DNA of 24,000 nt from Ardenticatenaceae bacterium (GTDB lineage Bacteria > Chloroflexota > Anaerolineae > Promineifilales > Promineifilaceae). The stretch is taken from assembly GCA_011525915.1 (NCBI GenBank), contig WYBM01000086.1, forward strand, positions 35,711-59,710, in the 5' to 3' direction. The notes beneath the pieces were generated by a model. That model worked only from the letters and a program-made list of their open reading frames with translations, was not told the DNA's origin and did no database searches. Positions 1-23,577 of this stretch are shown one piece after another (position 1 is the stretch's first letter; the number at the start of each line of letters is the position of its first letter). The position numbers and the translations under genes were made by a program.

Positions 1-552
1 CTGGAAGCGGGGGCCACCCACATTGACACCAGTGTGTTGGGCATTGGCGAACGCAACGGTATCACACCGTTGGGTGGCCTGATCGCCCGGTTGTACGCCA
101 CAGATGCGGCACTGGTGAAAAAGTACAACCTGCCGCTCATTCGCAACCTGGACAACCTGATCGCCCGGCTGGTGCGGGTAGACATCCCTTTTAACAACAC
201 CATCACCGGTTTTGCCAGCTTTACACACAAGGCCGGTATTCACGCCAAAGCGGTACTAAATAACCCGGCGACTTATGAGATTTTGAAGCCAGAAGATTTT
301 GGCCTGACGCGCTATATTCACGTCGCCCACCGCCTGACAGGGTGGAACGCCGTGAAGGGGCGAGCAGAACAATTGGGATTGTGTCTGGATGATGCTCAGG
401 TGAAATATTTGACAGAGCAAATTAAGAATATGGCGGATCACGGCCGTCTTACCCTTGACGATGTAGACGCGCTATTGTATGAAACCGCTAACCAAAATCT
501 GTTAGTAAAAGGAACAAACCATGGTGAAACAGTTGAGTACAGCCGAACTTGA
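1..552 (+). CDS. Homocitrate synthase (fungal Lys20 / Thermus HCS type), 3' part; CDS begins upstream of the window
   Basis: Frame 1 is open from base 1 ([20 protein letters not shown]...). The motif [28 protein letters not shown]...[17 protein letters not shown] closely resembles the Lys20/HCS C-terminal region as I recall it. Homoaconitase and homoisocitrate dehydrogenase genes follow. Confidence 0.85.
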
Positions 553-606
553 GGCCGGGCTGCCATTGGTACAGGCCTCACCGCCAGATAGGGGTAAGGA
601 GTGCTC

Positions 607-1839
607 ATGGGACAGACATTAAGCGAGCAAATTTTAGGGCAAAAAGCCGGGCGGCCCGTGCAGCCTGGGGATCTGGTGGTGGTGGAACCAGACGTGGCCA
701 TGGGGCATGATTCCCTGTCACCGGGCATTATCAAGGTCATGCAGGAGCAGTTGGGAACCTCACGTGTCCACAACCCGGCGCAGGTTGTGCTGGTGCTGGA
801 CCACGTAGCCCCAGCCTCCACCGTAGGCGTGGCCGATAACCAGAACCTGGTACGCCGCTTTGCTCAGGAGCAAGGCATTCGGTTATTTGAAGTGGGCCGA
901 GGCATCTGCCACCAGGTGTTAGTGGAAGAACGTATTGCCCGGCCGGGTATGGTGGTGGTGGGGTCAGATTCACACTCCACCAGTTATGGCGCAGTGGGGG
1001 CGTTTGGTACAGGCATGGGGTCTACAGACGTGGCGCTGGTGTGGGCCACCGGCAAAACGTGGCTGCGTGTACCGGAGACGCTGCGTGTTATAACACACGG
1101 CCGTTTCCGTCCTGGTGTAGATGCTAAAGATCTAGCGCTTAAACTAGGCCGCGAACTAACTATCGGCGGGGCTACCTACATGGCTATTGAGTATCATGGG
1201 CTGGCATGGCTGCCACTGCCCGGTCGTCAGACTCTCAGCAGTATGGCCATTGAACTGGGCGCCAAAGCGGGGATCTTCCCGCCGATGGGCGCTGCAGCGG
1301 CAGATTGGGATGTGCCAGACTACCTGTTTGTAGACCCCCAGGCCACCTACGCCCAAACCATAACCATCCACCTGGATGAATTGGAGCCTCAGGTGGCTGT
1401 TCCCCATGCCGTGGATGATGTGGTGGACCTGGGAGCGGTAGCCGGGACAAAAGTAGATGTGATCTTTTTGGGAACGTGTACCAACGGCCGTTATGAAGAC
1501 ATGCGCACCGCCGCCGACATTCTGAAAGGTCGGCAGCTAGCGCCTGGTGTGAGGATGATTGTCAGCCCGGCCAGCCGCCAGGAGTTACAGCGGGCCATTG
1601 CTGATGACACGTTAAATACCCTGCTGGAAGCTGGTGTCACGTTAACGACGCCGGGGTGTGGGCCGTGCATGGGACGGCACCAGGGCACGCTGGGTGAAGG
1701 GGATATCTGCCTTTCTACCGGTAACCGCAATTTTAAGGGGCGCATGGGACACCCTTCGTCGCAAATTTATCTAGCCAGCCCCAGTGTGGCCGCCGCCACG
1801 GCCGTGACAGGGCACATCACCGATCCCCGTGATTTATAA
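607..1839 (+). CDS. Homoaconitase / 3-isopropylmalate dehydratase large subunit (archaeal/Thermus LysT-HacA type aconitase-family protein)
   Basis: About 410 aa with aconitase-family motifs (GSDSHT-like GSDSHSTSYG, CTNGRYED, GCGPCMG). AAGGAG at 595-600 favours ATG 607 over the GTG at 601 listed in the ORF track. MGQTLSEQILGQKAGRPV resembles the Thermus LysT N-terminus. Confidence 0.85.
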   Translation: MGQTLSEQILGQKAGRPVQPGDLVVVEPDVAMGHDSLSPGIIKVMQEQLGTSRVHNPAQVVLVLDHVAPASTVGVADNQNLVRRFAQEQGIRLFEVGRGICHQVLVEERIARPGMVVVGSDSHSTSYGAVGAFGTGMGSTDVALVWATGKTWLRVPETLRVITHGRFRPGVDAKDLALKLGRELTIGGATYMAIEYHGLAWLPLPGRQTLSSMAIELGAKAGIFPPMGAAAADWDVPDYLFVDPQATYAQTITIHLDELEPQVAVPHAVDDVVDLGAVAGTKVDVIFLGTCTNGRYEDMRTAADILKGRQLAPGVRMIVSPASRQELQRAIADDTLNTLLEAGVTLTTPGCGPCMGRHQGTLGEGDICLSTGNRNFKGRMGHPSSQIYLASPSVAAATAVTGHITDPRDL

Positions 1840-1888
1840 AAAGGATAAAGGATGAGAACAAGCTCATCCTCCATAAATGGAGAGAACC

Positions 1889-2386
1889 ATGGCACGCATA
1901 TGGAAATTTAGCGCGGACGTAGATACTGACCAGATTGTCCCTGGGCGGTATGCACCCTACATGTTAAAAGAGGGACAGGATGTGAAAGATTATGCTTTTA
2001 TTGAGGCCCGGCCAGACTTTGCCAGGGCAGCACAGCCCGGTGACATCATTGTCGCCGGGGCAAATTTCGGCTGCGGCTCGTCACGGGAATATGCGCCGGA
2101 GGCGCTGCGGCGGCGGCAGATTGGGGCCATCATTGCCCCTAGTTTTGCCCGCATCTTTTTCCGCAATGCTATCAACCTGGGCATTCCACTGTTTACCGCA
2201 CCGAATGCGGTCATGATGTTAGCCGATGGGGATGAGGTGACCCTGGATCTGGCCCACGGCCGTATCCTGGCCGATCATGTCACGATTGATTTGCCTCCCC
2301 TACCTGATTTTGCTCAGGCAATTATAGCCGCAGGCGGCATCACGGCCTATGTCCGGCAGGTTGGCCGTTTTCCTGGAGAAGTATAG
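1889..2386 (+). CDS. Homoaconitase / 3-isopropylmalate dehydratase small subunit (LysU-HacB / LeuD type 2)
   Basis: MARIWKFSADVDTDQIVPGRYAP is the typical short LeuD-type-2 N-terminus. GGAGAG lies just upstream of ATG 1889. The ORF-track start at 1877 adds 4 residues and has no SD. Confidence 0.85.
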   Translation: MARIWKFSADVDTDQIVPGRYAPYMLKEGQDVKDYAFIEARPDFARAAQPGDIIVAGANFGCGSSREYAPEALRRRQIGAIIAPSFARIFFRNAINLGIPLFTAPNAVMMLADGDEVTLDLAHGRILADHVTIDLPPLPDFAQAIIAAGGITAYVRQVGRFPGEV

Positions 2387-3397
2387 ATGCCCAGGCTGTG
2401 TGTGATCCCCGGTGATGGCATTGGGCAGGAAGTGATTCCAGCGGCCGTTGACGTGCTAACGGCCGTCATCCCCACCCTGGAAACGGTAACGGCTGAAGCG
2501 GGCTGGGGTACGTTTGAAAAGTATGGTGTTTCCGTACCTGAAGAAACGCTAGCCGCTATTCGTGCCTGTGGCGCCGGTTTGTTTGGCGCGGTGTCATCTC
2601 CCTCACGGCGGGTGACGGGGTACCGCAGCGCTATACTGACGCTGCGACAAGAGCTTGAGCTGTATGCCAGCATCCGGCCGGTGAAAAGCTGGCCGCGTGT
2701 CTCCCCCAAGCCAGGCATTGATATGATCATCGTGCGTGAGAATACGGAAGGGCTGTATGTAGGGCGCGAACGGCTGGAGGCAGATGGCGATACGGCCGTG
2801 GCCGAACGCCTCATTACCAGAAAGGCCAGTGAACGGATCGCCCAAAAGGCGCTGGCACTGATGCAAGACCAGCGCCGCCAGCGGCTGACCATCGTACACA
2901 AGGCCAACGTGCTGCCGCTAACAGATGGGCTGTTTCGAGATACGGTGCGTGGGGTTTTTAGAAAGGCACAGTGGGTCCCAGGTGCACACGATATTGAAGT
3001 AGCAGAATTGTTGGTGGATGTAGCCGCCCTAAAAATGATAGCCGAGCCAGAGGAGTTTGATGTGATCATTACCACAAACCTGTTTGGCGACATTCTTTCT
3101 GATGCTGCCGCCTATTGGGGTGGCGGTCTGGGGCTGGCAGCCTCGCTTAACTGGGGAGACGACGTCGCTTTAGCCGAGCCAGTACACGGCTCGGCGCCGG
3201 ATATTGCTGGCAAAGGTATTGCCAACCCGATTGCAGCGATTTTGAGCGGGGCCTTGCTGGTACGGCACAGGTGGGGGCTGGCAGAGGCGGCGGAAAAGAT
3301 AGAGACGGCCGTTGATCATACATTGGCCGATGCATCCTATACATCGTTAGCCACCACAGAAACAATTACCCGGGCTGTTTTGCGACATTTGAAGTGA
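2387..3397 (+). CDS. Homoisocitrate dehydrogenase (isocitrate/isopropylmalate dehydrogenase family, Thermus HICDH-like)
   Basis: 336 aa. Start ATG abuts the upstream stop codon. Motifs [31 protein letters not shown] and [18 protein letters not shown] resemble Thermus HICDH along the length as I recall it. Confidence 0.85.
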
Positions 3398-3579: not shown

Positions 3580-3585
3580 ATGATG

Positions 3586-3619: not shown

Positions 3620-5182
3620 TTAGTACCAAATGCCCAATAAAGGGGAAAGAACTCGTCCGGGAACCCGATCTGGCACTGGTTGGCCTTCTGCCAAAATGGT
3701 TATGCCGTTTACTATCACATGGGTAATGCCCACACTATGGTGGTGAGGGTGTATGTATGTGGCCCTGTCAGCGACTGTATCAGGATCAAAAACAACCAGG
3801 TCTGCAAAGTAACCTTCGCGAACTTCACCTCGTTGTCCCAGGTGAAAGCGGCTGGCCGGGAACCCGGTCATTTTGTTCACGGCCGTTTCTAAAGAGAACA
3901 ACCCTTTCTGGCGCACCGCCCAGCCCAACAACCGTGTGGCTGAACCGTACTGACGCGGATGGATCTGGCCACCAGGGAAATAGATGCCGTCACTACCCAT
4001 CAGGTAACGGCTGTGAGCCAAAAAGGGGGCTACCAGGTCATCCTTTCCTAAGTGAAAAACAAGCAGCACAGCCATGCCTTCACTTATCAATAAATCACAC
4101 AAGGCATCGGCCGGGGAAGTGCCGACAGCGGCAATGTATTGGGCCAGTGACTGGCCCTGATAGCTGCTGTTCGTTTTGCTGCTTACCCAGGCAATGGTGA
4201 CGTCCTCTAACGGTGTATCGGCCAGGGTGCGGTTAAAAGCGGTACGCAGGCGCGGCTCTGCCAATTTAGGCAAGGCTGCCAGCGGACCATCTCGCCAGGC
4301 TTCATGGGGCAAGAGGTATTGCAGCATCGTTGAGCTGGGCAGGTAGGGGTAGACATCAAAAGAAAAATCGACCTCATTCACGGCGATGGTGTCAATATAG
4401 TGGAGGATCGCTTCTGCCTCGGCCGGGTCAGCTGCTTTAAGGTGCGAAATGTGAACCGGTACACCCGCTCGTTTGCCAATGTCCACCGCTTCCTGCACCC
4501 CGGCCAGTGTGCCCAGGTTGTAACGCACATGAGTGGTATATACGCCATGAGGGGCTATAAGGCGGCAGGCTGCCACCAATTCATCGGTAGTCGCCAGGCA
4601 TTCGTCGATGTAGTCTAGCCCGGTGGAAATGCCCAATGCACCTTCTTCCATGCCTTGCTGAACCAGACGCTTAATTTCGTACAGTTGAAAATCATCAGGA
4701 AAGCGCTGGCCAAACCCACAGGCCAGGGTTCGCACGTTGGCGTAGGGAATGAAGACAGCGGTGTTTTGGGCCGTACGGCCGTCTAACAAAGCCATATAAT
4801 CACGCAGGTGCCGCCAGCCGGTGTATTCGGCGTATTCCAGGCCGTTTAACGGCCGTAGATAATATACCCACTCCCGCCATGTATGTTCATTGACCGGCGC
4901 GTAGGAGATGCCGTCTAACATAAGAAATTCTGTGGTAAACCCTTGCGTGGTCTTGGAAACCAAGTGCGGCTCTTTCAACAGCCAGGCATCTGAATGAGTA
5001 TGGGCATCAATGAACCCGGGCGCTATGATCTTGCCGGCGGCATCAATGACCTGGGCGGCTGCAGCGGCCCCCAGGCGGCCAACAGCAGCAATACGATCAC
5101 CACGAAGGGCTACATCTGCCTGGTAGCGGGGGGTATTACGGCCGTCAATGACCCAGCCGTTGCGAATAAGCACATCAAACAT
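3620..5182 (-). CDS. N-acyl-D-amino-acid deacylase (D-aminoacylase) family amidohydrolase
   Basis: 520 aa. The N-terminus [14 protein letters not shown]...[12 protein letters not shown] carries the metal-binding HxH typical of the D-aminoacylase family. GAAGGA SD lies upstream of the ATG. Confidence 0.8.
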
Positions 5183-5354: not shown

Positions 5355-7052
5355 ATGCCCACTGCCCCACTGCGTAGCACAACGCCAGCCATTGACATAT
5401 ACGTCAAGTTGGCGCAATACCCCATTTTATGTGACCGCATTCGCTTGCGCATGCGCGAAGAATTATTCAGGCGCGGGATCATTGCCAAGACTGAATTTGA
5501 GCAAGAAGTAAAAAACCTGGCCGTGGAGTCACAGCGCCGCGAAGGCTTGAGTACGCCACTCTATCAAGAAGACGAGAGCGCCTGGCAACGTCGGCTGGAC
5601 ACCATTCGTGATTATCATACCGATGCTTATTTCGCCAACAACCTGGGCAGCGCCTTGCTGGAGCAAGTTATTGATGAGGTGCTGCGCAACCAGCATACAG
5701 AAGCTAACAAGACAGAGATAAGTTTTAACCCGGAAATTGCCCCTTGGGCTTTGCTTTTTCAGCAGGGCGAAGCGTATGATGCCCTGCCTCCCCCAGAAAA
5801 AGAGAAAGTAAAACACCATCTGGAAGAAATTAAGGTTGTCCTTATTAAACGGCTTATGAGTGACCAGCTGCCTTTTATTGCCGTGGCTAAGAATGTATTC
5901 CAAATACAGGATTTGCGCTGGATTTATGAGCGGCTCATTGGCCGTGGCAAAATTGGGGGCAAAGCCAGCGGCATGATGTTGGCCTGGAAGATACTGCAGA
6001 TGAATGCCCCGGAATTAGGGCCTAATCTTGGGAAATATATCACCATTCCAGAAACATACTTCATTGGGTCTGAATTGATCTACGAGTTCATCTATTTGAA
6101 CAAGTTAGAACGTTTTGTGAACCAGAAATATCTACCTGACGCCGAAAGACAGGCACAATACCCCCAAATCGTAACCGCGTGCCTGGCCGGCAAGATGCCC
6201 CCTTTTTTAGCAGAACAGTTGCGAGAGGTTTTGGTGCGCCTTGACGGCCGTCCGTTTATTGTGCGCTCTTCCTCTCTGTTAGAAGACCACCTAGATTACT
6301 CATTTGCCGGCAAATATGCTTCTGTTTTTTGTCCAAACCAGGGTAAACCAGAAGATAACCTGACCAATCTACTGAATGCCATCCGCCGTATTTACGCCAG
6401 CACCTTTGATCCCAATGCCATGATCGAACGTGAAAAATATGGTGTAATTGATTACGACGAGCGCATGGCCATTATGATTCAGCCCCTGGTAGGGGAACGG
6501 CATGGTGCTTACTTTTTCCCTACCATTGTGGGCATTGGCTTGAGCGAAAATCCGCTGCACCTGGAAACCAATACACGTAAGGGGGATGGCTGTTTACGGT
6601 TGGTATGGGGATTTGCCGGTCGTGTTACCGGGCAGCAATTTTTACATCAATCTTGTATTATTGCCCTGAGCCATCCCCGTAAACGATCTGGCGAAGCTAT
6701 AGAAAGCAACCTGTTGCAGGCTACACAACAAACCGTCAAAGTTGTTGACCTGGAAACCAATCAATTTGAAGAAGTGCCTGTCCACAAAATTTTGGGGGAA
6801 GGTTATAGTCATTTAGAGGAAGTGGCTACGGCCGTACCCCACGCCGCCCCTGAAGAGCCAGCCTATGCCATAACTTTTGATCGTCTTACCAAAGATCCCA
6901 AATTCGTCAAACTTATGCGTTATACGCTCATGCGCTTGCAGGCTGTTTACGAAAAAGCGGTGGAATTAGAATTTACCCTAATGATCGATAAAACCCCCAC
7001 TGGCCCCCACTATACCCTTTATATCTTGCAGTGCCATACGACGGTCCAGTGA
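5355..7052 (+). CDS. PEP/pyruvate-binding (PPDK_N, ATP-grasp) domain protein with an uncharacterised ~190-aa N-terminal region; no swivel-His or PEP-utiliser TIM domain
   Basis: GGKASGMMLAW, IVRSSSLLEDHLDYSFAGKYAS and a terminal ...LYILQCHTTVQ (equivalent to the QxRP end of the nucleotide-binding domain). GGAGG SD lies 6 nt before the ATG. Confidence 0.7.
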   Translation: MPTAPLRSTTPAIDIYVKLAQYPILCDRIRLRMREELFRRGIIAKTEFEQEVKNLAVESQRREGLSTPLYQEDESAWQRRLDTIRDYHTDAYFANNLGSALLEQVIDEVLRNQHTEANKTEISFNPEIAPWALLFQQGEAYDALPPPEKEKVKHHLEEIKVVLIKRLMSDQLPFIAVAKNVFQIQDLRWIYERLIGRGKIGGKASGMMLAWKILQMNAPELGPNLGKYITIPETYFIGSELIYEFIYLNKLERFVNQKYLPDAERQAQYPQIVTACLAGKMPPFLAEQLREVLVRLDGRPFIVRSSSLLEDHLDYSFAGKYASVFCPNQGKPEDNLTNLLNAIRRIYASTFDPNAMIEREKYGVIDYDERMAIMIQPLVGERHGAYFFPTIVGIGLSENPLHLETNTRKGDGCLRLVWGFAGRVTGQQFLHQSCIIALSHPRKRSGEAIESNLLQATQQTVKVVDLETNQFEEVPVHKILGEGYSHLEEVATAVPHAAPEEPAYAITFDRLTKDPKFVKLMRYTLMRLQAVYEKAVELEFTLMIDKTPTGPHYTLYILQCHTTVQ

Positions 7053-7126: not shown

Positions 7127-8983
7127 TTACGGCTTCAAAATCACCGGTAAAAAGACCCGTGGGGGGTCAATATAAGCCAGGTGAGATGTCACCATGTCTG
7201 GCAGGCCATCGCCATCCACATCCAGTTCAAAAATAATATCCGTAGGTGCCAGTAAGACAAAATCGGTGAATGCTACCTCCACTGGAATATCAACCGATTG
7301 GCCAGGGGTGATGTTCAACTGCCCGGTGATAACGCTGCCTGGGGGCAGGCCATTCAGACTCACAATAGGCGCGGTATCGGTCATGCCTCTTGACATGGCC
7401 CAGATGCGGTAATCGACTGCACCCCCACCGGCCAACGTCGGAAAGTCACCACCGCCATTATTTGTTACCGTAAAGCTAATGGCCTGGGTAAAACCAAAAG
7501 GAATGCCCCCGGCCAGGCCAGAATTAACGTTGGGGCTGGTCCACCAGTTTGGCGAATAGGACCATAAAGAGGCGTGACAGGTGAAGGTGGTGTTGGTGGC
7601 CAGATTAGTCACAATGGCCTGGAACTGCGCCCACTGCCCCTCCCCGGTAAAGCTGTTGGGGTAATCGATCTGAATATGCACTACGCCATACTGGTATGGG
7701 TTCAAAGATATGGGCAAAGTTGGGGTGAGAACGGTCATTGTGCTTGGCCCCACCAGCTGCACAGTATACGCTTTTTGGGGATCCGTAGAGGCGTTAAAAA
7801 TGTAGATTTCTGTTACCAGGGAAACTTGATCTAAGAAGTGATTGTCCCAGGGAATCATACAAAAGTCATTTTTGCCGCCTTGCCAGTTGCCAAAATCTAC
7901 ATCATGTACCATTTGATTAGGGCCGAGCTGAATGGTGTGTGTGCCCGTTTGCGGGTAAGTTTGCACCCACTGTATCATGTTTTGCCCATTCCACACGGGT
8001 GGCGGCTGTAACTCTGAAACTATATAGGTTCCTGGTGGCAAGCCCATAAACCAGTAGTTGCCTTGATCATCGGTAACAGTGGACGTGATGAAGCCATTCC
8101 CTTGCACCGTGATCGTCCAGTTAGGCAGGCCAGGTTCATCGACGTCTTTTTGGCCGTCACCATCCAGGTCATGGAATTTCATGCCATGAATCTCACCAAA
8201 TTCTTGGGTCCAGTTACCGAAGTTCAGGTTTTCGATAGATTGGGAGGGAACATATAAGAATGTGTAATAGCCAGGAGGCGGGGGAAAGGTTTGTACCCAA
8301 CCTGGCTGCAGCATTTCGGTAACGGTATAGGTGCCGGTCATCAGATCCATGAACCAATAACGGCCGTCTCCCCCCGTGGTTGTGGTCATCACCATGCCAT
8401 TCCCATCCAGTTGGATCGTCCAACCCGGCAGCCCCCACTCGTCGGCATCCCAGACGCCGTTGTTATTGTGGTCATAAAACTTGGCCCCGTGGACACCGCC
8501 ATCCCTGGGACCACCATGGTTGCCAAAATTAATGTCATCAACCTGCTGCCCACCATTAATAATCACCTGATGAACCCCACCACCGCCGGTAGCCGGATCA
8601 GGAAATGTTTGCTGCCAGCCAGGCTGCATTACTTCCATAACGATGTACTGGCCATCCGCCAAATTGTGAAAACAGTAAAATCCATCAGCGTTGGTGGTGG
8701 TAGAAGTAAACCCCCCGCCGCCTTCTAATTGGATTGTCCAGCCAGGCAAGGTGGGTTCCAGACCCAGATCCCAGACACCATTAGCATTTTGGTCATCAAA
8801 CTTTGCACCACAAATGCCACCACCGCCCACGACTGTGCGGGCCAGAGTCCCTTTGGCGGTGGCCAATGAGAACACCAATACCAGGGAAGCCAAGATGAGG
8901 ACGCTCAACAAGGCCATGTATCGATTCGTTTTTGGTAATAGGTGTGAACGTTTACGGGAAGGTCCAAACAGTTGCTCATTCAT
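7127..8983 (-). CDS. Secreted or cell-surface protein with three SdrD B-like (Cna-B-type) repeats and an uncharacterised ~250-aa C-terminal region
   Basis: N-terminal hydrophobic signal/anchor (MALLSVLILASLVLVFSLATAKG). The pattern G.KF.D.N.NG..D..E.GLPGWTI.L.G.G...T..TD..G.Y.F..L..G.Y.V.E...PGW.QT.P repeats three times. AAGGAG lies 8 nt before ATG 8983. Confidence 0.7.
   Translation of the reverse strand: MNEQLFGPSRKRSHLLPKTNRYMALLSVLILASLVLVFSLATAKGTLARTVVGGGGICGAKFDDQNANGVWDLGLEPTLPGWTIQLEGGGGFTSTTTNADGFYCFHNLADGQYIVMEVMQPGWQQTFPDPATGGGGVHQVIINGGQQVDDINFGNHGGPRDGGVHGAKFYDHNNNGVWDADEWGLPGWTIQLDGNGMVMTTTTGGDGRYWFMDLMTGTYTVTEMLQPGWVQTFPPPPGYYTFLYVPSQSIENLNFGNWTQEFGEIHGMKFHDLDGDGQKDVDEPGLPNWTITVQGNGFITSTVTDDQGNYWFMGLPPGTYIVSELQPPPVWNGQNMIQWVQTYPQTGTHTIQLGPNQMVHDVDFGNWQGGKNDFCMIPWDNHFLDQVSLVTEIYIFNASTDPQKAYTVQLVGPSTMTVLTPTLPISLNPYQYGVVHIQIDYPNSFTGEGQWAQFQAIVTNLATNTTFTCHASLWSYSPNWWTSPNVNSGLAGGIPFGFTQAISFTVTNNGGGDFPTLAGGGAVDYRIWAMSRGMTDTAPIVSLNGLPPGSVITGQLNITPGQSVDIPVEVAFTDFVLLAPTDIIFELDVDGDGLPDMVTSHLAYIDPPRVFLPVILKP
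7883..8818 (-). repeat. Three tandem ~100-aa domain repeats inside the surface-protein CDS
   Basis: Approximately residues 56-156, 163-257 and 264-367 align with each other at the protein level. Each ends in (I/L/V)NFGN(H/W) or DFGNW. Confidence 0.6.
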
Positions 8984-14749: not shown

Positions 14750-14965
14750 GGGCCTCCACTGAATATGAGTATGAGAACGGCCGTTTACATTCTAGCTTTC
14801 CATTCGGTACAATAAAGGTACATTTTCACAAAAACCCCCCTCGTTGGCAATTCGAGGCATGGCGGATGCGGGCGCGGTTCATCATGAACCTAAACTCTAT
14901 GAAAGTCTGTGTACATGCATCCGCGTTCATCCACATCCCGTTATTTATAAAGAAAAGGAGAACCC

Positions 14966-16410: not shown

Positions 16411-16446
16411 ACGGCCGTATCTGCACAAACCGGTACGGCCGTTTTT
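16411..16446 (+). terminator. Rho-independent terminator built from two ACGGCCGT copies
   Basis: 16411-16421 pairs with 16432-16442 (11 bp including one G-U, 10-nt loop), followed by UUUU at 16443-16446. It lies 36 nt after the aldolase stop. Confidence 0.6.
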
Positions 16447-16530
16447 CATGACAATGTTCACTGGCATTTTCCTCTAATCCCGGCATACTTGACAACAGCG
16501 CAACAATTTACACTTTGTAAGGAGAACCCT

Positions 16531-17604
16531 ATGTCATTAAAAAGTTTACCCGCCGGGGTCATCACTGGCGAACAGGTGCAGGCCGTGTTTGCCCACGCCA
16601 AAGCCAACCAGTTTGCTTTGCCCGCGGCCAACGTGGTAGGCACAAACAGCGTCAATGCGGTGTTGGAAACGGCCGTGGCCGTTAATTCCCCCGTCATTTT
16701 GCAATTTTCGCACGGCGGCGCCACTTTTTTTGCCGGTAAAAGCCTGAACAATGACGGCCAGCGGGCGGCTATTGCCGGGGCCGTGTCAGGCGCACATCAC
16801 GTGCATCAGGTAGCGGCACTCTACGGCGCGCGGGTCATTTTGCATACCGATCACGCTGCCAAGAAGCTGCTGCCCTGGATCGATGGACTGTTAGATGCAG
16901 GTGAAGCATTTTACAAGGTTCATGGCAAGCCGCTGTTCAGCAGCCATATGCTAGACCTGTCTGAAGAACCGATCGCCGAAAACATTGACATTTGCAAGCG
17001 TTACCTGGAGCGTATGAGCAAATTGGGCATGACCCTGGAGTTTGAACTGGGCGTCACCGGCGGCGAGGAAGATGGCGTTGATAACACCGGTGTCGACAGC
17101 GCCCGTTTGTACACACAGCCAGAAGAAGTGGCCTACGCCTATGAAGAATTAATGAAGGTCAGCCCCAACTTTACCGTAGCGGCTGCCTTTGGCAATGTGC
17201 ACGGCGTTTACAAGCCGGGCAACGTGCAGCTGCGCCCTATCATTCTGCACAATTCACAGAAGCACGTGCAGGAAACGTTTGGTACGGGGGAAAAACCGAT
17301 CAACTTTGTTTTCCACGGTGGTTCTGGCTCCAGCCAGGCAGAGATCCGCGAAGCGATTGCGTATGGGGCCATCAAAATGAACATTGATACCGACCTGCAA
17401 TGGGCGTTTTGGGATGGCGTGCGCGGCTACGAGGCCACGTACCATCATTACCTGCAAGGGCAAATTGGCAACCCCGAAGGGGACGACGCTCCCAACAAGA
17501 AATATTATGATCCACGCCGCTGGCTGCGCACGGGCGAAGAAGCATTTGTAGCCCGTCTGAAGCAGGCGTTTGCTGATCTGAACAGCGTTAACACGCTGGC
17601 GTAA
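16531..17604 (+). CDS. fbaA: Fructose-1,6-bisphosphate aldolase, class II (type A, E. coli FbaA-like)
   Basis: MSLKSLPAGVITGEQVQAVFAHAKANQFALPAANVVGTNSVNAVLE...HTDHAAKKLLPW...FGNVHGVYKPGNV...HGGSGS. AAGGAGAACCCT precedes ATG 16531. The ORF-track start at 16489 adds 14 unsupported residues. Confidence 0.9.
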   Translation: MSLKSLPAGVITGEQVQAVFAHAKANQFALPAANVVGTNSVNAVLETAVAVNSPVILQFSHGGATFFAGKSLNNDGQRAAIAGAVSGAHHVHQVAALYGARVILHTDHAAKKLLPWIDGLLDAGEAFYKVHGKPLFSSHMLDLSEEPIAENIDICKRYLERMSKLGMTLEFELGVTGGEEDGVDNTGVDSARLYTQPEEVAYAYEELMKVSPNFTVAAAFGNVHGVYKPGNVQLRPIILHNSQKHVQETFGTGEKPINFVFHGGSGSSQAEIREAIAYGAIKMNIDTDLQWAFWDGVRGYEATYHHYLQGQIGNPEGDDAPNKKYYDPRRWLRTGEEAFVARLKQAFADLNSVNTLA

Positions 17605-17607: not shown

Positions 17608-17645
17608 GCTTGAGGTTGGCAGACGGCCGTCTGCCAACCTCAAGC
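17608..17645. terminator. 38-bp perfect palindrome centred on ACGGCCGT, between convergent fbaA and the TauE-like gene
   Basis: GCTTGAGGTTGGCAGACGG|CCGTCTGCCAACCTCAAGC is its own reverse complement. It begins 4 nt after the fbaA stop and overlaps the last two codons plus the stop of the minus-strand gene. There is no U tract on either side. Confidence 0.45.
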
Positions 17646-18425
17646 TATCATCAAGTTCAGACCGATCAACACTAGCAGCAGGAGAACCATTTTGCGGAAG
17701 ATGGCCGCGGGTATACGGCCGTCCAACAAAAACCCCACGACCAACCCGACAACCATCGCCGGCATAGCCACCCAGACGTTATGCCAGACAACGGCCGTGA
17801 CATTTCCTTTTAAGATGTGCCCGGCCAACACCATGATGCCTGCTGGTAGAAAAAACCCCTGCAAATTACCCTTAAACTCGGCCGGCGGCCAGCGGCGGCA
17901 GCTGCCATAAATGATCACGGGTGGGCCGCTGGTATTGTAAATACCACCGATCACCCCGGCCACAAAACCAAAGGTCCAGGCCCAGGCCGGCCGCGTCAGT
18001 GCTGGTAAACGCGGCGACAGCAGCGCATAAAGCGCATACCCGGCTACCATCGCCCCCAACAGGCGTGCACCCACAACCGGGTCTATGACGCCCAGCAAAT
18101 ACAAACCGACCGGCGTGCCGGCCAACGCCGCTATCACCAGGCGGCTGACGGCCCGCACATTGACTGCCTCCCGAAAACGTATCAGAATGACAAATTCAGC
18201 CAACATGCCCACGATAGCCATCATGGGCGCGGCAGCAGGCAGGCCAATCACGGCCGTGAGCAGCGGCATCGATACCAGCGCCAACCCAAAGCCGGTGGCT
18301 GCTTGCACAAAAATGGCCAGGAAAACGATGAGGGCCACAAGGAGATCAGGACTCAGGTTATTCAACACGGATGGTTTTGATCGGCTGTTTGGCGTGCAGT
18401 TCATAGAGGTCTGGGCGGCGGTCAT
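17640..18425 (-). CDS. TauE/SafE (TSUP, DUF81) family anion/sulfite-type permease
   Basis: Polytopic membrane protein with glycine-rich TM segments (AATGFGLALVSMPLL, GVIGGIYNTSGPPVI). The start is uncertain. ATG 18425 overlaps the upstream CDS by 68 nt. GTG 18368 would overlap it by 11 nt. Confidence 0.7.
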   Translation of the reverse strand: MTAAQTSMNCTPNSRSKPSVLNNLSPDLLVALIVFLAIFVQAATGFGLALVSMPLLTAVIGLPAAAPMMAIVGMLAEFVILIRFREAVNVRAVSRLVIAALAGTPVGLYLLGVIDPVVGARLLGAMVAGYALYALLSPRLPALTRPAWAWTFGFVAGVIGGIYNTSGPPVIIYGSCRRWPPAEFKGNLQGFFLPAGIMVLAGHILKGNVTAVVWHNVWVAMPAMVVGLVVGFLLDGRIPAAIFRKMVLLLLVLIGLNLMIA

Positions 18426-19926
18426 GCAGCGGCCGTACGCTGCCCAATTCTCTTTGCTGAGCCAGGCTGTTGAGGTCTAGATCAGCAATCACTACCGTTT
18501 CCACATTGGGATCAGCCAAGGCGGCCGTGGCTTCCAACGGAAAAGCAAAATCACTGGGTGTAAGAATGGCTGACTGGCTGTAATTAAGCAGATAAGAAGG
18601 TGTTGTCGGCAGGTTGCCGGCGTTGCCAGACAATACCAGATAGATGTAATTCTCCACAGCACGCGCATGAGCGGCATAACGCACCCGGTAATAGGCTTTC
18701 TTTTCATCGGTGCTAAAGGGGACAAAGATCGTCTCTACACCGGCCATTGCCAGCAGGCGCGCCGTCTCTGGGAACTCAATGTCATAACAAATCTGAAGGG
18801 CGATACGGGCCAAGGGTGTCTCAAAAATACGGATACCTTCCCCGGGCTGCACGCCCCATCGCTCTCGTTCAAAAGGGGTAACGTGCAGCTTATCTTGGGT
18901 ATGCACCTGGCCAGACGGTGTAAACAGGTAGGCAACATTGTACAACTGGCCCTCACGCGCAGTGGGGTGAGAGCCAGCGATAATATACAGGCGGTATTTT
19001 TGGGCTAGACGGGTAAACAGCTCCTGATATTGCGCCGTAAAATCCGCCAACTGCCAGGCAGCCTTTTTGGGATCCATATCTGGCGACAGCAGGCTCATCA
19101 ACTGCACGGTGAACAACTCTGGCAGCAGCAAAAAGTGGCAGTGATAGGTATCAGCGGACAGGACAAAAAAGGTAACGATGCGTTCAAAATCATCCCAACT
19201 ATCAATAGGGCGCATCAGCCATTGGGCAGCGCAGACGCGGATGGTGCGGACGGGCCGTTTGAGGGGGGCGGCGGCAATTTTGCGCCGCTTTGGTTTATAC
19301 TCAGGGTTAGGCATTTCCAGCCAGGTGGCATAGTTAAGGCTCTCTTGATCCTCCATGTAATCTAGCAGCAGCCGCTTGACATGGTAACCGGCCGACAGGT
19401 GGGCGTTTAACGCTTTGTCATGTAATTCGCCGGCTTCAACCCGGCGCACATACTCTTCGGCCGTCATTTTGCCGCTGACCAGATAGTAATCAGGGATACG
19501 GCCGTAAGCCACCATGCGCCGCAAATTATACTTTCGCATCAACCCACGCCGTTTCTGGTACAGGCGTTTGGAAATGCCGCGCTGCCGGTAATCAGGATGC
19601 ACGGCAATGTCAGCGCCGTAAAGTGTATCACCGCTGTGGGTATGGTTGCTGAATGTGCCTGCGCCCGTAATTTCGCGGTAAGTATACCAATGATCATCAT
19701 CATCCAACTGCACGATCACCGCGGTAGCATAGCCGACTACCTGCCCGTCTAGTTCGGCCAGGAACTGACCTTGGGGGAAAGCGTTAAATTGATGTTCGTA
19801 TTTACGACGACCGTACATCTCATGGGCTTCGTACAACTGCCCATACACCGCCTGCTGACAAGCTACAATGCCGGGAATGTCTTCTGCCGTCCACAACCTG
19901 ATTTTAAATCTCCCTGTTTTCTTCAT
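18358..19926 (-). CDS. Bifunctional GNAT-family N-acetyltransferase / carbon-nitrogen hydrolase (nitrilase superfamily) fusion protein
   Basis: The N-terminal ~200 aa has a GNAT signature (HPDYRQRGISKRLY). The C-terminal ~280 aa has nitrilase-superfamily landmarks (LLLPELF, IALQICYDIEFPE with the catalytic Cys). Confidence 0.75.
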   Translation of the reverse strand: MKKTGRFKIRLWTAEDIPGIVACQQAVYGQLYEAHEMYGRRKYEHQFNAFPQGQFLAELDGQVVGYATAVIVQLDDDDHWYTYREITGAGTFSNHTHSGDTLYGADIAVHPDYRQRGISKRLYQKRRGLMRKYNLRRMVAYGRIPDYYLVSGKMTAEEYVRRVEAGELHDKALNAHLSAGYHVKRLLLDYMEDQESLNYATWLEMPNPEYKPKRRKIAAAPLKRPVRTIRVCAAQWLMRPIDSWDDFERIVTFFVLSADTYHCHFLLLPELFTVQLMSLLSPDMDPKKAAWQLADFTAQYQELFTRLAQKYRLYIIAGSHPTAREGQLYNVAYLFTPSGQVHTQDKLHVTPFERERWGVQPGEGIRIFETPLARIALQICYDIEFPETARLLAMAGVETIFVPFSTDEKKAYYRVRYAAHARAVENYIYLVLSGNAGNLPTTPSYLLNYSQSAILTPSDFAFPLEATAALADPNVETVVIADLDLNSLAQQRELGSVRPLHDRRPDLYELHAKQPIKTIRVE

Positions 19927-20356: not shown

Positions 20357-20583
20357 CCCATATACTCCTTAAATTCATCCAATGGGGCATCAAAGTCATC
20401 GGCCATATGCAAAACAACCTCTTTGGCATGGCCGATCCGTCGCTGCGGGCGTGCTTCCGGAAGGACTACCAATTTGACCAACGGCCGTTTCCCCTTGGCA
20501 ATGATAATCTCTTCACCGTCCAGAGCTTGTTGAATGAGCCGGGACAAATGGGTTTTTGCTTCATGAATGGTTACTTGTGTCAT
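20353..20583 (-). CDS. Type II antitoxin, Phd/YefM family (VapB-equivalent partner of the PIN toxin)
   Basis: 76 aa. MTQVTIHEAKTHLSRLIQQALDGEEIIIAKGKRPLVKLV is the Phd/YefM N-terminal fold signature. Confidence 0.8.
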   Translation of the reverse strand: MTQVTIHEAKTHLSRLIQQALDGEEIIIAKGKRPLVKLVVLPEARPQRRIGHAKEVVLHMADDFDAPLDEFKEYMG

Positions 20584-20589
20584 GCCGAA

Positions 20590-20618: not shown

Positions 20619-23294
20619 AGTATCCAGCCGTTCGCTCAGTTCGGTATGGCTGCCTTGCAGCTGGGTCAGTTTATCGCGTTCCTTTTGCACCACGGCCGTT
20701 GGCGCTTTTTGGGCAAAAGGGCTGTTAAGCAGGCCGCTGACCCGCTGAATTTGCGCATCAAGGTCGGCCAACTCCTTTTGCAAGCGCTCCCGCTCTTTAT
20801 CCAGGTCTACCAGTCCGGCTAACGGCAGGTAGGCGGTGATATCCCCCTGGGCGATGGTAATAGCCTGGTCAGGAGCAGCCGCGCTTTCGGCAATCACCAG
20901 CGTTGTTTCATCCAGGCGGGCCAGAAAACAAAGGACAGCCTGTTGATCACGCAGGAAAGAGGTTTGAGAACCTGCAGAAATAACGGCCGTAACCCACTTC
21001 CCCGGCTCTACCTCATTATCAGCACGGGCGGCGCGGATGCCACGCACCAGGGTGCGCAGCTGTTCAAAGCTGGCCGCCGCCTGAGGGTAGGTGTCACCTG
21101 CTGCTGGCCAATCAGCAATGATGAGCGCCGCACTCCAGCCACCGGCTGGTTCAATGGCCAGATCGGCAGCCACAAAGGCATTTTTTAACTGCTGCCATGT
21201 CTCTTCGGTAACGTAAGGAATATACGGGTGCAGCAGGCGCAGGCAATCATCCAACACCGTGCGGGCCACGGCCAGGGTTGTCCAGGCGCGTTGGCCACCT
21301 ACCCGCAGCTGCACTTTTGCCAATTCTACATACCAATCAGCAAAGTCACCCCAGAGAAAGTCATACACCTGGCGGCCGGCCTCGCCATAGAGGTAATTGT
21401 CCATCAGGCGGTTGGCGTCAGCGGTCACTTCACTGAGGCGGGTCAAAATCCAGTGGTCGGCAGCGGTATAATTGGGCGTGGATGTGGCATCAGCTTTGCG
21501 GGCTTTGTCCAGATTGGCCGTGATAAAGCGGGCCGTGTTCCAGATTTTGTTGGCGAAGTTGCGGTTGGAGGCTACCCGGTCCAGCGACAGATTTAAATCA
21601 TTGCCAGGGGAGCCGCTGGTGAGCAGGGTAAAGCGCAAGGCATCGGTACCGTATTCGCCCATCACATCTAGGGGATCGGTAACGTTGTTGAGGGTTTTTG
21701 ACATTTTACGGCCGTGTTCGTCCCGCACCAGCCCGTGTAAATACACGGTATGGAAGGGAATGTCATTGGTGAACAACAGGCCCTGCATGACCATGCGCGC
21801 CACCCAGAAGAAAAGGATATCGTACCCCGTCTCCATCACATCGGTAGGGTAAAAACGCTGCAGATCGGGCGTGTTTTCCGGCCAGCCCAACGTAGAAAAG
21901 GGCCACAAGCCAGAGCTAAACCAGGTATCCAATACATCTGGGTCTTGTTCCAGGGTCACATCATGGCCGTAACGGGCGTGAGCTTCAGCGGCGGCCGCCG
22001 CTGCGTCGTGAGCCACAATCACCTTTTCCGGGTCACCATTCACATACCAGGCCGGGATGCGGTGACCCCACCACAATTGGCGGCTGATGCACCAGGGCTT
22101 GATATTTTCCAACCAGTTGTCCCACACTTTGACAAAACGTTCGGGCACAATGCGAATCCGGCCGCGGTGCACGGCATCCAGCCCCATATGGGCCATGGGT
22201 GCGACGTTGGCAAACCACTGCCAGCTTACCAGCGGCTCGATGATTTCGCCGCCGCGCTGGCTGCGGGGCACGTTCAGAGTGTACGGCTGCGTCATGATGG
22301 TCAGGTCGGCGGCTTCCATGTCCGCCCACAGTTTCTGGCGGCATTCAAAACGATCCAGCCCGGCGTACGGGCCAGCGTGGACGTTCATGGTGGCGTCTTT
22401 GTGCATCACGTTGAGGACGGCCAGGCCATGCCGCTGGCCAATTTCAAAGTCGTTGGGGTCATGGCCGGGTGTGATTTTAAGGGCACCAGTGCCAAAGTTT
22501 CGGTCTACATAGTCATCGGCGAGGATGGGGATTTCGCGGTTGAGGATGGGTACCAGGCAAACCTGGCCAATAAAGGGCTGGTAGCGTTCGTCGTCGGGAT
22601 GAACGGCCACGGCCGTATCGCCCAAAATCGTCTCTGGCCGTGTGGTAGCCACGGGAATGTGCCCACCGCCCTTCACCGGGTACTTAAAATGATAGAGAAA
22701 GCCCTGTTCTTCACTATATTCCACTTCCAGGTCAGACACGGCCGTTTGCAGCCCTGGCGACCAGTTCACCAGATATTCGGCGCGGTAGATGAGGCCCATA
22801 CGGTAAAGGCGGATGAATGCTTCTTTGACAGCTTCGCTCAGCCCCTCGTCCAAGGTAAACCGCTCCCGCTCCCAGTCACATGAAGCCCCTAAACGACGCA
22901 GTTGTTTGACAATGTGGCCACCATACTTTGCCTTCCACTCCCAGGTACGGCGCAGGAACGCTTCACGACCTATGGCTTCACGGGAAGTACCTTCCTGGCG
23001 CAGCATTTTTTCCACCTGCAGCTGCGTGGCAATACCGGCATGGTCGGTACCGGGAACCCAGAGTGCGGCCCGGCCTTGCATGCGGGCGCGGCGAATCATC
23101 AGGTCTTCCAGGGCCACAAACATGGCATGCCCCATGTGCAGTTCGCCGGTGACATTGGGGGGAGGTATGGAAATGGTGAACGGCCTGGCATCAGCAGGGC
23201 GACACTCAGGTTTAAACCAGCCATTGGCCTCCCACCACTGGTAGAGCCGTTCTTCAGTATCATGAAAGTCATAGGCTTTGGGCATTTGGGTCAT
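20610..23294 (-). CDS. valS: Valine--tRNA ligase
   Basis: Class I HIGH (PPPNVTGELHMGHA) and KMSKS (GRKMSKT) motifs plus a C-terminal coiled coil. MTQMPKAYDFHDTEERLYQWWE is a typical ValRS N-terminus. The ORF-track start at 23483 adds 63 non-homologous residues. Confidence 0.93.
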   Translation of the reverse strand: MTQMPKAYDFHDTEERLYQWWEANGWFKPECRPADARPFTISIPPPNVTGELHMGHAMFVALEDLMIRRARMQGRAALWVPGTDHAGIATQLQVEKMLRQEGTSREAIGREAFLRRTWEWKAKYGGHIVKQLRRLGASCDWERERFTLDEGLSEAVKEAFIRLYRMGLIYRAEYLVNWSPGLQTAVSDLEVEYSEEQGFLYHFKYPVKGGGHIPVATTRPETILGDTAVAVHPDDERYQPFIGQVCLVPILNREIPILADDYVDRNFGTGALKITPGHDPNDFEIGQRHGLAVLNVMHKDATMNVHAGPYAGLDRFECRQKLWADMEAADLTIMTQPYTLNVPRSQRGGEIIEPLVSWQWFANVAPMAHMGLDAVHRGRIRIVPERFVKVWDNWLENIKPWCISRQLWWGHRIPAWYVNGDPEKVIVAHDAAAAAAEAHARYGHDVTLEQDPDVLDTWFSSGLWPFSTLGWPENTPDLQRFYPTDVMETGYDILFFWVARMVMQGLLFTNDIPFHTVYLHGLVRDEHGRKMSKTLNNVTDPLDVMGEYGTDALRFTLLTSGSPGNDLNLSLDRVASNRNFANKIWNTARFITANLDKARKADATSTPNYTAADHWILTRLSEVTADANRLMDNYLYGEAGRQVYDFLWGDFADWYVELAKVQLRVGGQRAWTTLAVARTVLDDCLRLLHPYIPYVTEETWQQLKNAFVAADLAIEPAGGWSAALIIADWPAAGDTYPQAAASFEQLRTLVRGIRAARADNEVEPGKWVTAVISAGSQTSFLRDQQAVLCFLARLDETTLVIAESAAAPDQAITIAQGDITAYLPLAGLVDLDKERERLQKELADLDAQIQRVSGLLNSPFAQKAPTAVVQKERDKLTQLQGSHTELSERLDTLT

Positions 23295-23322
23295 GTTTAC
23301 TTCCCTTGTCATTATTATCGGA

Positions 23323-23406
23323 AGAGATTGGAGATGAGAGCGTGGCGACAAACGGCCGTTACAATCTCTAAAATAAAAAGCCCTCATCCTGGCAAGAACG
23401 AGAGCT
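23323..23406 (-). promoter_or_regulatory. Structured valS 5' leader: terminator-like hairpin plus two crossing helices
   Basis: On the minus RNA, AGCUCUC (23400-23406) pairs with GAGGGCU (23379-23385), followed by UUUUUAUUUU. Alternative 9-bp (23380-23388 with 23333-23341) and 8-bp (23362-23369 with 23323-23330) helices cross each other. Confidence 0.25.
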
Positions 23407-23577
23407 ATCTCTATCTTTATTTGTTCAGTTGCGTTGGAAGTATAACAAGGGGGGGTACGGCCGTCAAAGTGACGGCCAGCCACAAAGAACCATATGCCAA
23501 AACAATGATACTGTTTGAAAAACGTTATACATTTTGGTTTAATACCGTAACTACAATTTTGGCGAGATCACCAGGGT

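Follow-up and report, generated by a model that had tools for sequence, protein, structure and literature searches.

A hyper-abundant palindromic octamer, ACGGCCGT, in a clade of uncultured Anaerolineae and its likeness to the HIP1 element of cyanobacteria

The window analyzed in the present study, a stretch of 24,000 bp from contig WYBM01000086.1 (53.5% G+C), contains 45 exact copies of the perfect palindrome ACGGCCGT, distributed from 440-447 (first copy) to 23457-23464 (last copy), which corresponds to a density of 1875 per Mb. The excess of this octamer in the window was confirmed, and the trait is restricted to one uncultured clade of Anaerolineae (Chloroflexota). ACGGCCGT is a genuine element of the highly iterated palindrome (HIP) type outside the cyanobacteria. 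With a probability of about 0.55, we consider it to be driven by a DNA process linked to modification.

Abundance and origin of the octamer

Shuffled versions of the window that preserved dinucleotides (n = 100) contained on average 0.49 copies, and never more than 3. An earlier note on this DNA had expected about 0.5 copies and counted 45, and both its count and its coordinates were reproduced exactly. ACGGCCGT was by far the most frequent 8-mer of the window, the best non-overlapping 8-mers reaching no more than 9 occurrences. The hexamer CGGCCG was found 69 times, 45 of them in the A...T context, and each of the remaining fifteen flank combinations was found 0-4 times; outer-base variants numbered 3 (GCGGCCGT), 1 (ACGGCCGC), 2 (TCGGCCGT) and 1 (CCGGCCGT), identical to the earlier counts.

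The ratio between observed and expected copies (O/E) in the window was 95, 108, 40, 17, 7, 2.5 and 1.3 for Markov models of order 0 to 6, respectively. The 6th-order model had been put forward in the earlier note as a means of refuting the excess, but its value of 1.3 is invalid as a test. Values near 1 at high order are circular and do not count as evidence against the excess, because the motif makes up most of its own 7-mers and 6-mers, contributing 45 of 46 ACGGCCG, 45 of 51 CGGCCGT and 45 of 69 CGGCCG. The copies were also spaced more evenly than at random (coefficient of variation 0.70 versus 0.97, p ~0.005), and a coefficient below 1 was found in 13 of the 15 loci tested.

When phases were assigned with the longest open reading frames (ORFs), 40 copies were coding, on both strands, and five were intergenic. 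The coding copies were read as ACG-GCC-GTN (Thr-Ala-Val) in 18 cases, as xAC-GGC-CGT (His/Asn/Asp/Tyr-Gly-Arg) in 17 and as xxA-CGG-CCG-Txx (Arg-Pro) in five. The use of all three phases and both strands had been recognized earlier and stands, but the exact numbers then given (18, 15 and 6, with 6 intergenic) do not; the two tallies differ in how the boundary copies (23457 and 12332) were assigned.

Permutation of synonymous codons within each gene, which keeps the proteins and a codon usage that is itself inflated by the motif, gave 4.4±2 copies (n = 1000, maximum 11) against the 40 coding copies observed. At 50 positions of the window the peptide permits the octamer by synonymous choice, and 40 of these positions carry it (18 of 21, 17 of 21 and 5 of 8 by phase). 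The permissive peptides are themselves in excess in the window proteins: Thr-Ala-Val occurred 19 times versus 3.4 expected (5.6-fold), its five permutations 0-6 times each, and [HNDY]-Gly-Arg 22 times versus 5.7 expected. These results support an excess that operates on DNA, and not on codons or peptides, as had been claimed earlier from the phases. They show a directional process at the DNA level, which has filled about 80% of the synonymously reachable positions and has overridden some amino-acid constraints.

When valS of the window was aligned codon by codon with that of twelve relatives, no insertions or deletions were found at any ACGGCCGT site. Two copies lie on Thr-Ala-Val peptides that are universally conserved; motif-free relatives spell these peptides as ACC/ACA/ACT GCN GTN, and motif-rich lineages spell them as ACGGCCGT. 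Private copies were also found elsewhere in the valS genes of two relatives, L001 and L002. Both synonymous and non-synonymous substitutions converge on the motif, an outcome that the earlier note had named as worth looking for among orthologues. Judged by this alignment, the copies were created in place by point substitution of both kinds, with no insertion, and gain appears to be continuing. Three of the five alignable valS sites are common to the window and L002 (74% protein identity), a degree of sharing that near-saturated permissive peptides would equally give by convergence.

Distribution, anatomy and comparison with known systems

Eighty loci were fetched from GTDB species representatives by means of a search with valyl-tRNA synthetase (ValRS). 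The closest relatives in ValRS were three metagenome-assembled genomes (MAGs) of Anaerolineae/Chloroflexota, L001, L002 and L003, with 70-74% identity over the aligned length, and all others showed 64% or less. Measured over the best segment, identity to the GTDB representatives did not exceed 72%. ACGGCCGT was present in 53 copies in 22.7 kb of L002 (2.3 per kb), 18 copies in 13.3 kb of L001 (1.4 per kb) and 4 copies in 13.5 kb of L003 (0.3 per kb). The other 77 loci, which included Anaerolineaceae, Caldilineales, Thermoflexales and Ktedonobacteria, had 0-2 copies each. The window and the three MAGs are mutually only 70-74% identical in ValRS, so that the trait must be old and have been maintained long after the saturation of synonymous sites.

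Two loci deserve separate mention. The few copies of L003 stand in the extended context AACGGCCGTT described below, and L006 (69% G+C, 62% ValRS identity in the best segment) carries the motif only at two conserved Thr-Ala-Val positions of valS. These loci may represent the edge of the distribution of the trait, or chance at high G+C.

A scan of IMG/VR and of a metagenome collection for two copies 30-120 nt apart detected about 40-45 motif-rich loci in the former, with 1-4 copies per kb and a maximum of 49 copies in 13 kb, at 46-62% G+C, and about 25 motif-rich contigs in the latter (43-66% G+C). Selection by pairs biases these densities upward, but it cannot account for tens of copies per locus. 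L096 (3.7 copies per kb) encodes ParA, an FtsK/SpoIIIE translocase, an SLT transglycosylase and a P22-type antirepressor, and L149 (3.6 copies per kb) encodes D5-like and DndC-like proteins; judging from these genes, both look like DNA of plasmids, integrative and conjugative elements or phages. Chromosomal DNA and the plasmid-like and phage-like DNA of this clade are shown to be subject to one and the same process. Three further loci (L272, L284 and L294) were degenerate GTGTACACGGCCGT-like tandem satellites that contain the octamer; they are unrelated to the dispersed phenomenon and were excluded.

One-mismatch variants of the octamer were counted in a pooled motif-rich set of 280 kb with 658 copies, and 354 kb of motif-free Chloroflexota relatives, with 3 copies, served as a comparison. 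In the motif-rich set, variants at positions 1 and 8 numbered 250 versus 93 expected. Variants at inner positions were found at 0.4-1.15 times expectation (for example, ATGGCCGT at 0.92 and ACGGCTGT at 0.65), with the exception of one transition, C to T at the first C of GGCC (ACGGTCGT/ACGACCGT), which occurred 16 times versus 6.7 expected (2.4-fold; control ratio 0.94). Because one-mismatch variants concentrate at positions 1 and 8, CGGCCG is the core and the A/T flank a second layer. The 24 possible one-mismatch neighbours totalled 15 in the window, versus about 15 expected. There is no halo of decayed copies, and the copies are kept sharp. An apparent depletion of inner variants (0.74 versus the Markov-3 expectation) was discarded, the ratio being about 1.0 when the frequencies of the motif-free relatives were used.

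The phage contig L426 (the same contig as L165 and L399; IMGVR_UViG_3300049045_000044) contained 139 CGGCCG in 21 kb versus 7-24 expected, mostly with an A flank on one side only and with independent flanks. At the chromosomal loci nearly every ACGGCCG belonged to a full palindrome, and full palindromes exceeded the expectation for independent flanks in three sets (116 versus 91, 595 versus 516 and 219 versus 176). Both the hexamer CGGCCG and the 7-mer ACGGCCG show strong enrichment of their own in mobile elements, and the 8-mer accounts for only part of the picture.

Outside the octamer, a soft symmetric extension, GGaA-ACGGCCGT-TtCC, was reproducible in the chromosomal, viral and metagenome sets. 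With both flanks pooled as read towards the motif, the frequencies were 0.37-0.50 for G at -4, 0.41-0.46 for G at -3, 0.36-0.39 for A at -2 and 0.44-0.50 for A at -1, mirrored on the 3' side. A bias of the coding strand cannot explain this extension, because the pooled flanks would then give similar values for G and C. The form AACGGCCGTT made up 60-69% of the copies in L001 and L002; the lineage of the window has lost the preference at ±1 and kept the G at -4. Four layers are shown by these data: the CGGCCG core, a 5' A on each strand (ACGGCCG, an intermediate most common in mobile elements), the full palindrome, dominant in chromosomes, and the outer GGaA...TtCC.

The earlier note had drawn a parallel with HIP1 of cyanobacteria (GCGATCGC), for which alternate HIPs (GGGATCCC, TCGATCGA, CAGGCCTG and others) are also known (Robinson 1995, Elhai 2015, Xu 2018), and this parallel is supported by the clade restriction, the variants at positions 1 and 8, the palindromic extension and the density. 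Like HIP1, ACGGCCGT is a GC-rich 8-bp palindrome with about 2 copies per kb, a density within the range of HIP1 (300-2700 per Mb, with an O/E of 55-228; PMC4390886). Both occur in coding DNA (in all phases) and non-coding DNA, arise by substitution and not by insertion, and enclose a nested palindromic core of restriction or methylation (CGGCCG/GGCC here, CGATCG/GATC in HIP1). Concentration of one-mismatch variants at the outer positions was likewise described for HIP1 by Elhai (PMC4390886), and lineage-specific palindromic extensions and a density that varies between related lineages are common to both. Four defining properties of the HIP class, namely abundance, dispersed origin by substitution, outer-position variants and palindromic extension, were observed for ACGGCCGT.

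Nevertheless, ACGGCCGT does not qualify as HIP1 proper, which is cyanobacterial and is methylated by DmtA (GATC) and DmtC (CGATCG). Its sequence and its phylum (Chloroflexota, Anaerolineae, the host being placed by ValRS similarity) are different, it has no internal GATC and so no Dam-type layer, and its outer bases are A/T and not G/C, so that the 'G-meC' reader of Elhai cannot be the same. Compared with HIP1, strong enrichment in plasmid-like and phage-like DNA is shown for ACGGCCGT.

Other systems share individual features with the octamer. The DNA uptake sequence (DUS) of Neisseria and the uptake signal sequence (USS) of Pasteurellaceae also occur about once per kb, in all phases, at an amino-acid cost, with even spacing, in terminator hairpins and in restricted clades, but they are non-palindromic sequences of 9-12 nt bound by competence receptors, whereas ACGGCCGT is a perfect palindrome with a symmetric extension and is as frequent in mobile DNA as in the chromosome. 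Chi and the FtsK-orienting polar sequences (KOPS) or architecture imparting sequences (AIMS) are over-represented 8-mers that mark the DNA of the host itself; they are non-palindromic, oriented with replication and 4-10 times rarer, and a palindrome carries no orientation. The footprint of Dcm and Vsr at CCWGG in E. coli is likewise a methylation site with a frequency shaped by the bias of repair. The effect of very short patch repair is modest, less than a few-fold, and depletes the T-containing product of deamination. The excess of ACGGCCGT, by contrast, is 40-100-fold, and the product ACGGTCGT is in excess, not depleted. Repetitive extragenic palindromic (REP) elements, bacterial interspersed mosaic elements (BIMEs) and miniature inverted-repeat transposable elements (MITEs) are intergenic, at least 20-40 bp long and duplicated or transposed, unlike a motif with 40 of 45 copies in ORFs and no insertions or deletions. 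ACGGCCGT lacks the features that define uptake sequences, Chi, REP elements and the Vsr footprint.

In addition, the octamer AAAATTTT was hugely frequent in three loci from rumen Selenomonadaceae MAGs (L025, L033 and L040), with 30 copies in 14 kb and 19 in 12 kb, and with 31 in 22 kb at 50% G+C. It is another palindromic octamer specific to a lineage.

A proposed modification-linked drive and rival readings

In the proposed process, which follows the suggestion of Elhai for HIP1, CGGCCG or GGCC would be the target of an orphan modifying enzyme, and the modified site would be recognized, in its A-flanked context alone, by a factor of repair, nicking or recombination. New mutations by which a site is created or completed would be preferentially kept, giving a ratchet that would saturate near one site per 0.3-1 kb. 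The sites may by now be of use to the cell as well, for instance in discriminating strands during repair or in labelling self DNA for uptake or recombination. From the ratchet model of Elhai, variants at the outer positions, 7-mer intermediates and a saturation at around one site per kb are predicted, and all three were seen for ACGGCCGT. The excess of ACGGTCGT provides a weak hint that the first C of GGCC is modified.

Several points weigh against a modification-linked drive. The statistics rest on 24 kb of the source genome and on fragments of relatives, including the pair-selected loci with their upward bias. A classical Vsr-type drive at the inner C is disfavoured, because it predicts depletion of ACGGTCGT and an excess was seen, and a simple motif search of the motif-rich loci gave no Vsr-like signature. 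The even spacing, and a density in mobile elements at least equal to that of the chromosome, fit functional selection at least as well as a passive ratchet. Moreover, soft extensions over 16 bp are found more typically with dimeric DNA-binding proteins than with methyltransferases.

The search for a cognate enzyme must be counted on the same side. Motif screens and a hidden Markov model of C5 methyltransferases were applied to 71 motif-rich loci (505 kb, a small fraction of any genome), and yielded only two C5 methyltransferases, both of phages. Because so small a part of each genome was sampled, the absence of a modifying enzyme says little, and neither supports nor refutes the model. The two methyltransferases (L399/L426, 1253-2596, 447 aa with a variable region of about 215 aa; L366, 1903-3717) are unrelated outside the catalytic motifs, and that of L399 matches M.HhaI and M.HaeIII in the catalytic core only. 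Its relatives in IMG/VR have at most 46% full-length identity and lie on contigs essentially without ACGGCCGT, and its best homologues among 5.8 billion proteins (51-52% identity) are encoded by ordinary phages without an excess of CGGCCG, a further point against it. No association with the motif was shown for either protein.

Other candidates were set aside. Short ORFs with DPPY-like motifs in L147 and L148 had no Pfam match. The DndC-like gene of L149 (12024-13187, minus strand), of the 3'-phosphoadenosine-5'-phosphosulfate (PAPS) reductase family, scored 103 bits against a DndC cut-off of 290 and so gives no evidence of phosphorothioation. In Streptomyces this modification has a GGCC core as its target, and the gene is a lead only.

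Phage contigs with relatives of the L399 methyltransferase (L435 and L436, also L427-L434) were almost devoid of GGCC or CGGCCG. L436 had one GGCC in 11.6 kb at 57% G+C, and L435 had four in 11.8 kb. This scarcity is classic avoidance of restriction sites, the opposite pattern.

A second reading, which we regard as rather improbable, is that ACGGCCGT is a tag of self DNA under positive selection, read by machinery of uptake, recombination or nuclease control in the manner of DUS/USS or Chi. Marked DNA would be preferentially taken up, recombined or spared, and chromosome and mobile elements alike would be selected for a copy every few hundred bases. The density of about 2 per kb, the three phases, the accepted amino-acid cost, the spacing more even than random and the copies in terminator hairpins agree with such a tag, as does the finding that mobile elements are as rich as the chromosome or richer. 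Known uptake sequences and Chi are, however, non-palindromic and act on one strand, whereas a palindrome has no orientation. Close pairs showed no enrichment (a single pair at 30 nt or less in the window versus about 2.5 predicted from density), and the 7-mer half-sites of L426 with their independent flanks look like a stepwise mutational ratchet and not like selection for complete sites. From the cyanobacteria, on the other side, methylated HIP1 has been found to raise transformation of Synechococcus PCC 7002 up to 100-fold (bioRxiv 10.1101/2024.09.10.611283), and HIP1 abundance correlates with type IV secretion system genes (bioRxiv 10.64898/2026.06.24.733823).

A tag of this kind is compatible with a modification step and does not exclude the ratchet; both may coexist. 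We tentatively suggest, while holding the odds to be against it, that CGGCCG is modified (methylated or possibly phosphorothioated) and read in the strand-specific, A-flanked form ACGGCCG by machinery of repair, recombination or uptake, and so constitutes a clade-wide mark of self, which chromosome and resident plasmids and phages alike would be driven or selected to bear every 300-500 bp. HIPs would then be convergent and not a cyanobacterial peculiarity.

The copies could also form an array of binding sites, with a 16-bp operator GGaAACGGCCGTTtCC, for an abundant dimeric protein that structures the nucleoid or organizes the chromosome, a role proposed for HIP1 by Xu et al. 2018 with respect to chromosome structure (PMC5861425). 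The soft palindromic extension to ±8, reproduced in three independent sets, and the even spacing would suit such a protein. We consider this quite unlikely: no candidate protein was found, thousands of sites per genome within coding sequence and at an amino-acid cost would be unusual for an operator, the enrichment of 7-mer half-sites in mobile elements would not be expected of a dimer site, and the window lineage has lost the ±1 preference with the 8-mer kept.

Two remaining explanations are virtually refuted. A by-product of codon, codon-pair or peptide preference (ACG-GCC-GTN or Thr-Ala-Val, for example) might be suggested by the Thr-Ala-Val reading of 18 of the 45 copies and by GCC and GGC as the preferred codons of Ala and Gly, but it is contradicted by the three phases, both strands and intergenic copies, by the codon shuffle and the valS alignment, and by an equal density of the motif across about 46-65% GC. 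Remnants or insertions of some small REP- or MITE-type mobile repeat, or an artefact of assembly, to which the copies within extragenic palindromes might point, are just as firmly dismissed by the position of most copies inside conserved housekeeping ORFs without insertions or deletions relative to orthologues, by the presence of the motif in MAGs, metagenomes and IMG/VR contigs obtained independently in many studies, and by a gnd protein with 100% identical DNA in at least 20 separate run assemblies (SRR326880xx), whose matching contigs fall within the window and contribute neither further sequence nor polymorphism. Look-ups of the exact proteins, successful for gnd, were not so for hacA and hacB.

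Genes of the window and significance of the element

The gene content of the window is that of ordinary housekeeping. Genes of the alpha-aminoadipate pathway of lysine (homocitrate synthase, the large and small subunits of homoaconitase, and homoisocitrate dehydrogenase) are followed in table 1 by an amidohydrolase, a phosphoenolpyruvate (PEP)-utilising-like protein, an SdrD-like repeat protein, zwf, gnd, proA, proB, an aldolase-like gene and fba. The window also includes two hypothetical ORFs, a nitrilase-family gene, valS and the start of a glycosyltransferase-like gene. Scans of the window with Rfam and for tRNAs detected no RNA genes, and no competence genes were present among its annotated genes.

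Table 1. Positions of the ACGGCCGT copies in the window, with their genes and reading phases, and the two associated secondary structures.
Feature	Position	Gene or location (strand)	Phase and reading, or remark
Copy	440..447	homocitrate synthase (+)	phase 1, His-Gly-Arg
Copy	1097..1104	homoaconitase large subunit (+)	phase 1, His-Gly-Arg
Copy	1484..1491	homoaconitase large subunit (+)	phase 1, Asn-Gly-Arg
Copy	1798..1805	homoaconitase large subunit (+)	phase 0, Thr-Ala-Val
Copy	2256..2263	homoaconitase small subunit (+)	phase 1, His-Gly-Arg
Copy	2459..2466	homoisocitrate dehydrogenase (+)	phase 0, Thr-Ala-Val
Copy	2792..2799	homoisocitrate dehydrogenase (+)	phase 0, Thr-Ala-Val
Copy	3305..3312	homoisocitrate dehydrogenase (+)	phase 0, Thr-Ala-Val
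Copy	3879..3886	amidohydrolase (-)	phase 0, Thr-Ala-Val
Copy	4775..4782	amidohydrolase (-)	phase 1, Asp-Gly-Arg
Copy	4849..4856	amidohydrolase (-)	phase 2, Arg-Pro
Copy	5138..5145	amidohydrolase (-)	phase 1, Asp-Gly-Arg
Copy	6244..6251	PEP-utilising-like gene (+)	phase 1, Asp-Gly-Arg
Copy	6828..6835	PEP-utilising-like gene (+)	phase 0, Thr-Ala-Val
Copy	8360..8367	SdrD-like repeat protein gene (-)	phase 1, Asp-Gly-Arg; sole copy in this 1.86-kb gene
Copy	9350..9357	zwf (-)	phase 1, Asp-Gly-Arg
Copy	9943..9950	zwf (-)	phase 2, Arg-Pro
Copy	10624..10631	zwf (-)	phase 2, Arg-Pro
Copy	11432..11439	gnd (-)	phase 0, Thr-Ala-Val
Copy	12146..12153	gnd (-)	phase 0, Thr-Ala-Val
Copy	12332..12339	proA end (-)	phase 2, Arg-Pro; final T is first base of TAA stop
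Copy	12836..12843	proA (-)	phase 2, Arg-Pro
Copy	13069..13076	proA (-)	phase 0, Thr-Ala-Val
Copy	13425..13432	proA (-)	phase 1, Asp-Gly-Arg
Copy	13790..13797	proB (-)	phase 1, Asp-Gly-Arg
Copy	13845..13852	proB (-)	phase 0, Thr-Ala-Val
Copy	14402..14409	proB (-)	phase 1, Asn-Gly-Arg
Copy	14777..14784	intergenic, between divergent proB and aldolase-like gene	no hairpin; final T begins -35-like TTTACA
Copy	15089..15096	aldolase-like gene (+)	phase 0, Thr-Ala-Val
Copy	16411..16418	intergenic, 3' of aldolase-like gene	5' arm of terminator hairpin
Copy	16435..16442	intergenic	3' arm of hairpin begun by copy 16411, then TTTTT
Terminator-like hairpin	16411..16462	(+)	copies 16411 and 16435 paired, 11-bp stem, then U-run; -18.6 kcal/mol, z = -2.4
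Copy	16669..16676	fba (+)	phase 0, Thr-Ala-Val
Copy	17623..17630	intergenic	centre of 38-nt perfect palindrome 17608..17645
38-nt perfect palindrome	17608..17645	between convergent fba and 261-aa ORF, overlaps last 6 nt of ORF	17-bp stem, -34.1 kcal/mol, z = -7.2
Copy	17715..17722	261-aa hypothetical ORF (-)	phase 1, Asp-Gly-Arg
Copy	17791..17798	261-aa hypothetical ORF (-)	phase 0, Thr-Ala-Val
Copy	18250..18257	261-aa hypothetical ORF (-)	phase 0, Thr-Ala-Val
Copy	19498..19505	nitrilase-family gene (-)	phase 1, Tyr-Gly-Arg
Copy	20481..20488	intergenic, downstream of valS	marginal structure only
Copy	20692..20699	valS (-)	phase 0, Thr-Ala-Val-Val; common to L002; most motif-free relatives Ala-Ala-Val-Val (non-synonymous, Ala to Thr)
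Copy	20983..20990	valS (-)	phase 0, Thr-Ala-Val; private to window lineage; relatives Thr-Ala-Leu, Ile-Ala-Ala or Lys-Ala-Leu (Leu or Ala to Val)
Copy	21708..21715	valS (-)	phase 1, His-Gly-Arg(-Lys); private; relatives CAT GGC CGC or CAC GGG CGC, same peptide (synonymous)
Copy	22609..22616	valS (-)	phase 0, conserved Thr-Ala-Val-Ala-Val-His; common to L001, L002, L006
Copy	22738..22745	valS (-)	phase 0, conserved Thr-Ala-Val-Ser-Asp; common to L001, L002, L003, L006
Copy	23352..23359	valS N-terminal region (-)	phase 1, Asn-Gly-Arg
Copy	23457..23464	valS (-), doubtful N-terminal extension or 5' leader	coding status depends on start

Three of the intergenic copies (16411, 16435 and 17623) form part of strong hairpins, in agreement with the three copies placed in terminator stems earlier, and the perfect palindrome at the third of these is likely to be a bidirectional terminator. 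Both hairpins were missed by a simple terminator scan, owing to its loop limit of 8 nt or to the lack of a T-run behind the stem.

At the start of valS (window 23300-23483), the longest ORF has about 60 extra N-terminal residues compared with ValRS models, and the alignment with relatives begins only at residue 27. The coding status of the copy at 23457 is uncertain because the true start of valS is uncertain. Two genes of the class II aldolase family lie in tandem, an atypical paralogue of 469 aa with a weak match to aldolase models (14966-16375) and the canonical fba (16489-17604).

The SdrD-like gene (7127-8983) has one copy in 1.86 kb, and the start of the glycosyltransferase-like gene (23578-24000, 39% G+C) has none. 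These two genes may have been acquired more recently, their composition not yet having converged to that of the host.

No description of ACGGCCGT as a HIP was found in the searchable literature, an incomplete body in which the octamer appeared only inside primers. This agrees with the earlier note, which knew of none, although an earlier mention is possible given that coverage. The octamer is absent from a prokaryote-wide survey of DNA-structure motifs, a search of the methylome literature for CGGCCG gave nothing relevant, and the HIP literature that was found covers cyanobacteria only.

ACGGCCGT looks like a second, independent case of the HIP1 phenomenon, still without an explanation thirty years after it became known. 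The hypotheses put forward for HIP1 (a methyl-directed repair ratchet, chromosome structure, and a function in transformation or similar to that of Chi) were tested only within cyanobacteria. A hyper-abundant palindrome with a different core in an unrelated phylum provides a natural replicate for this question, and a set of genes that co-varies with motif density in both phyla would be the likely machinery. If ACGGCCGT is indeed a mark of self, an independent second system would be available for testing what HIPs are for.

For the organisms themselves, the octamer provides a sharp compositional signature by which this Anaerolineae clade can be binned. Plasmids and phages could also be assigned by it to hosts within the clade, and genes of recent acquisition could be flagged. 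EagI and HaeIII-type sites are predicted to be extremely dense, and probably modified, in these organisms.

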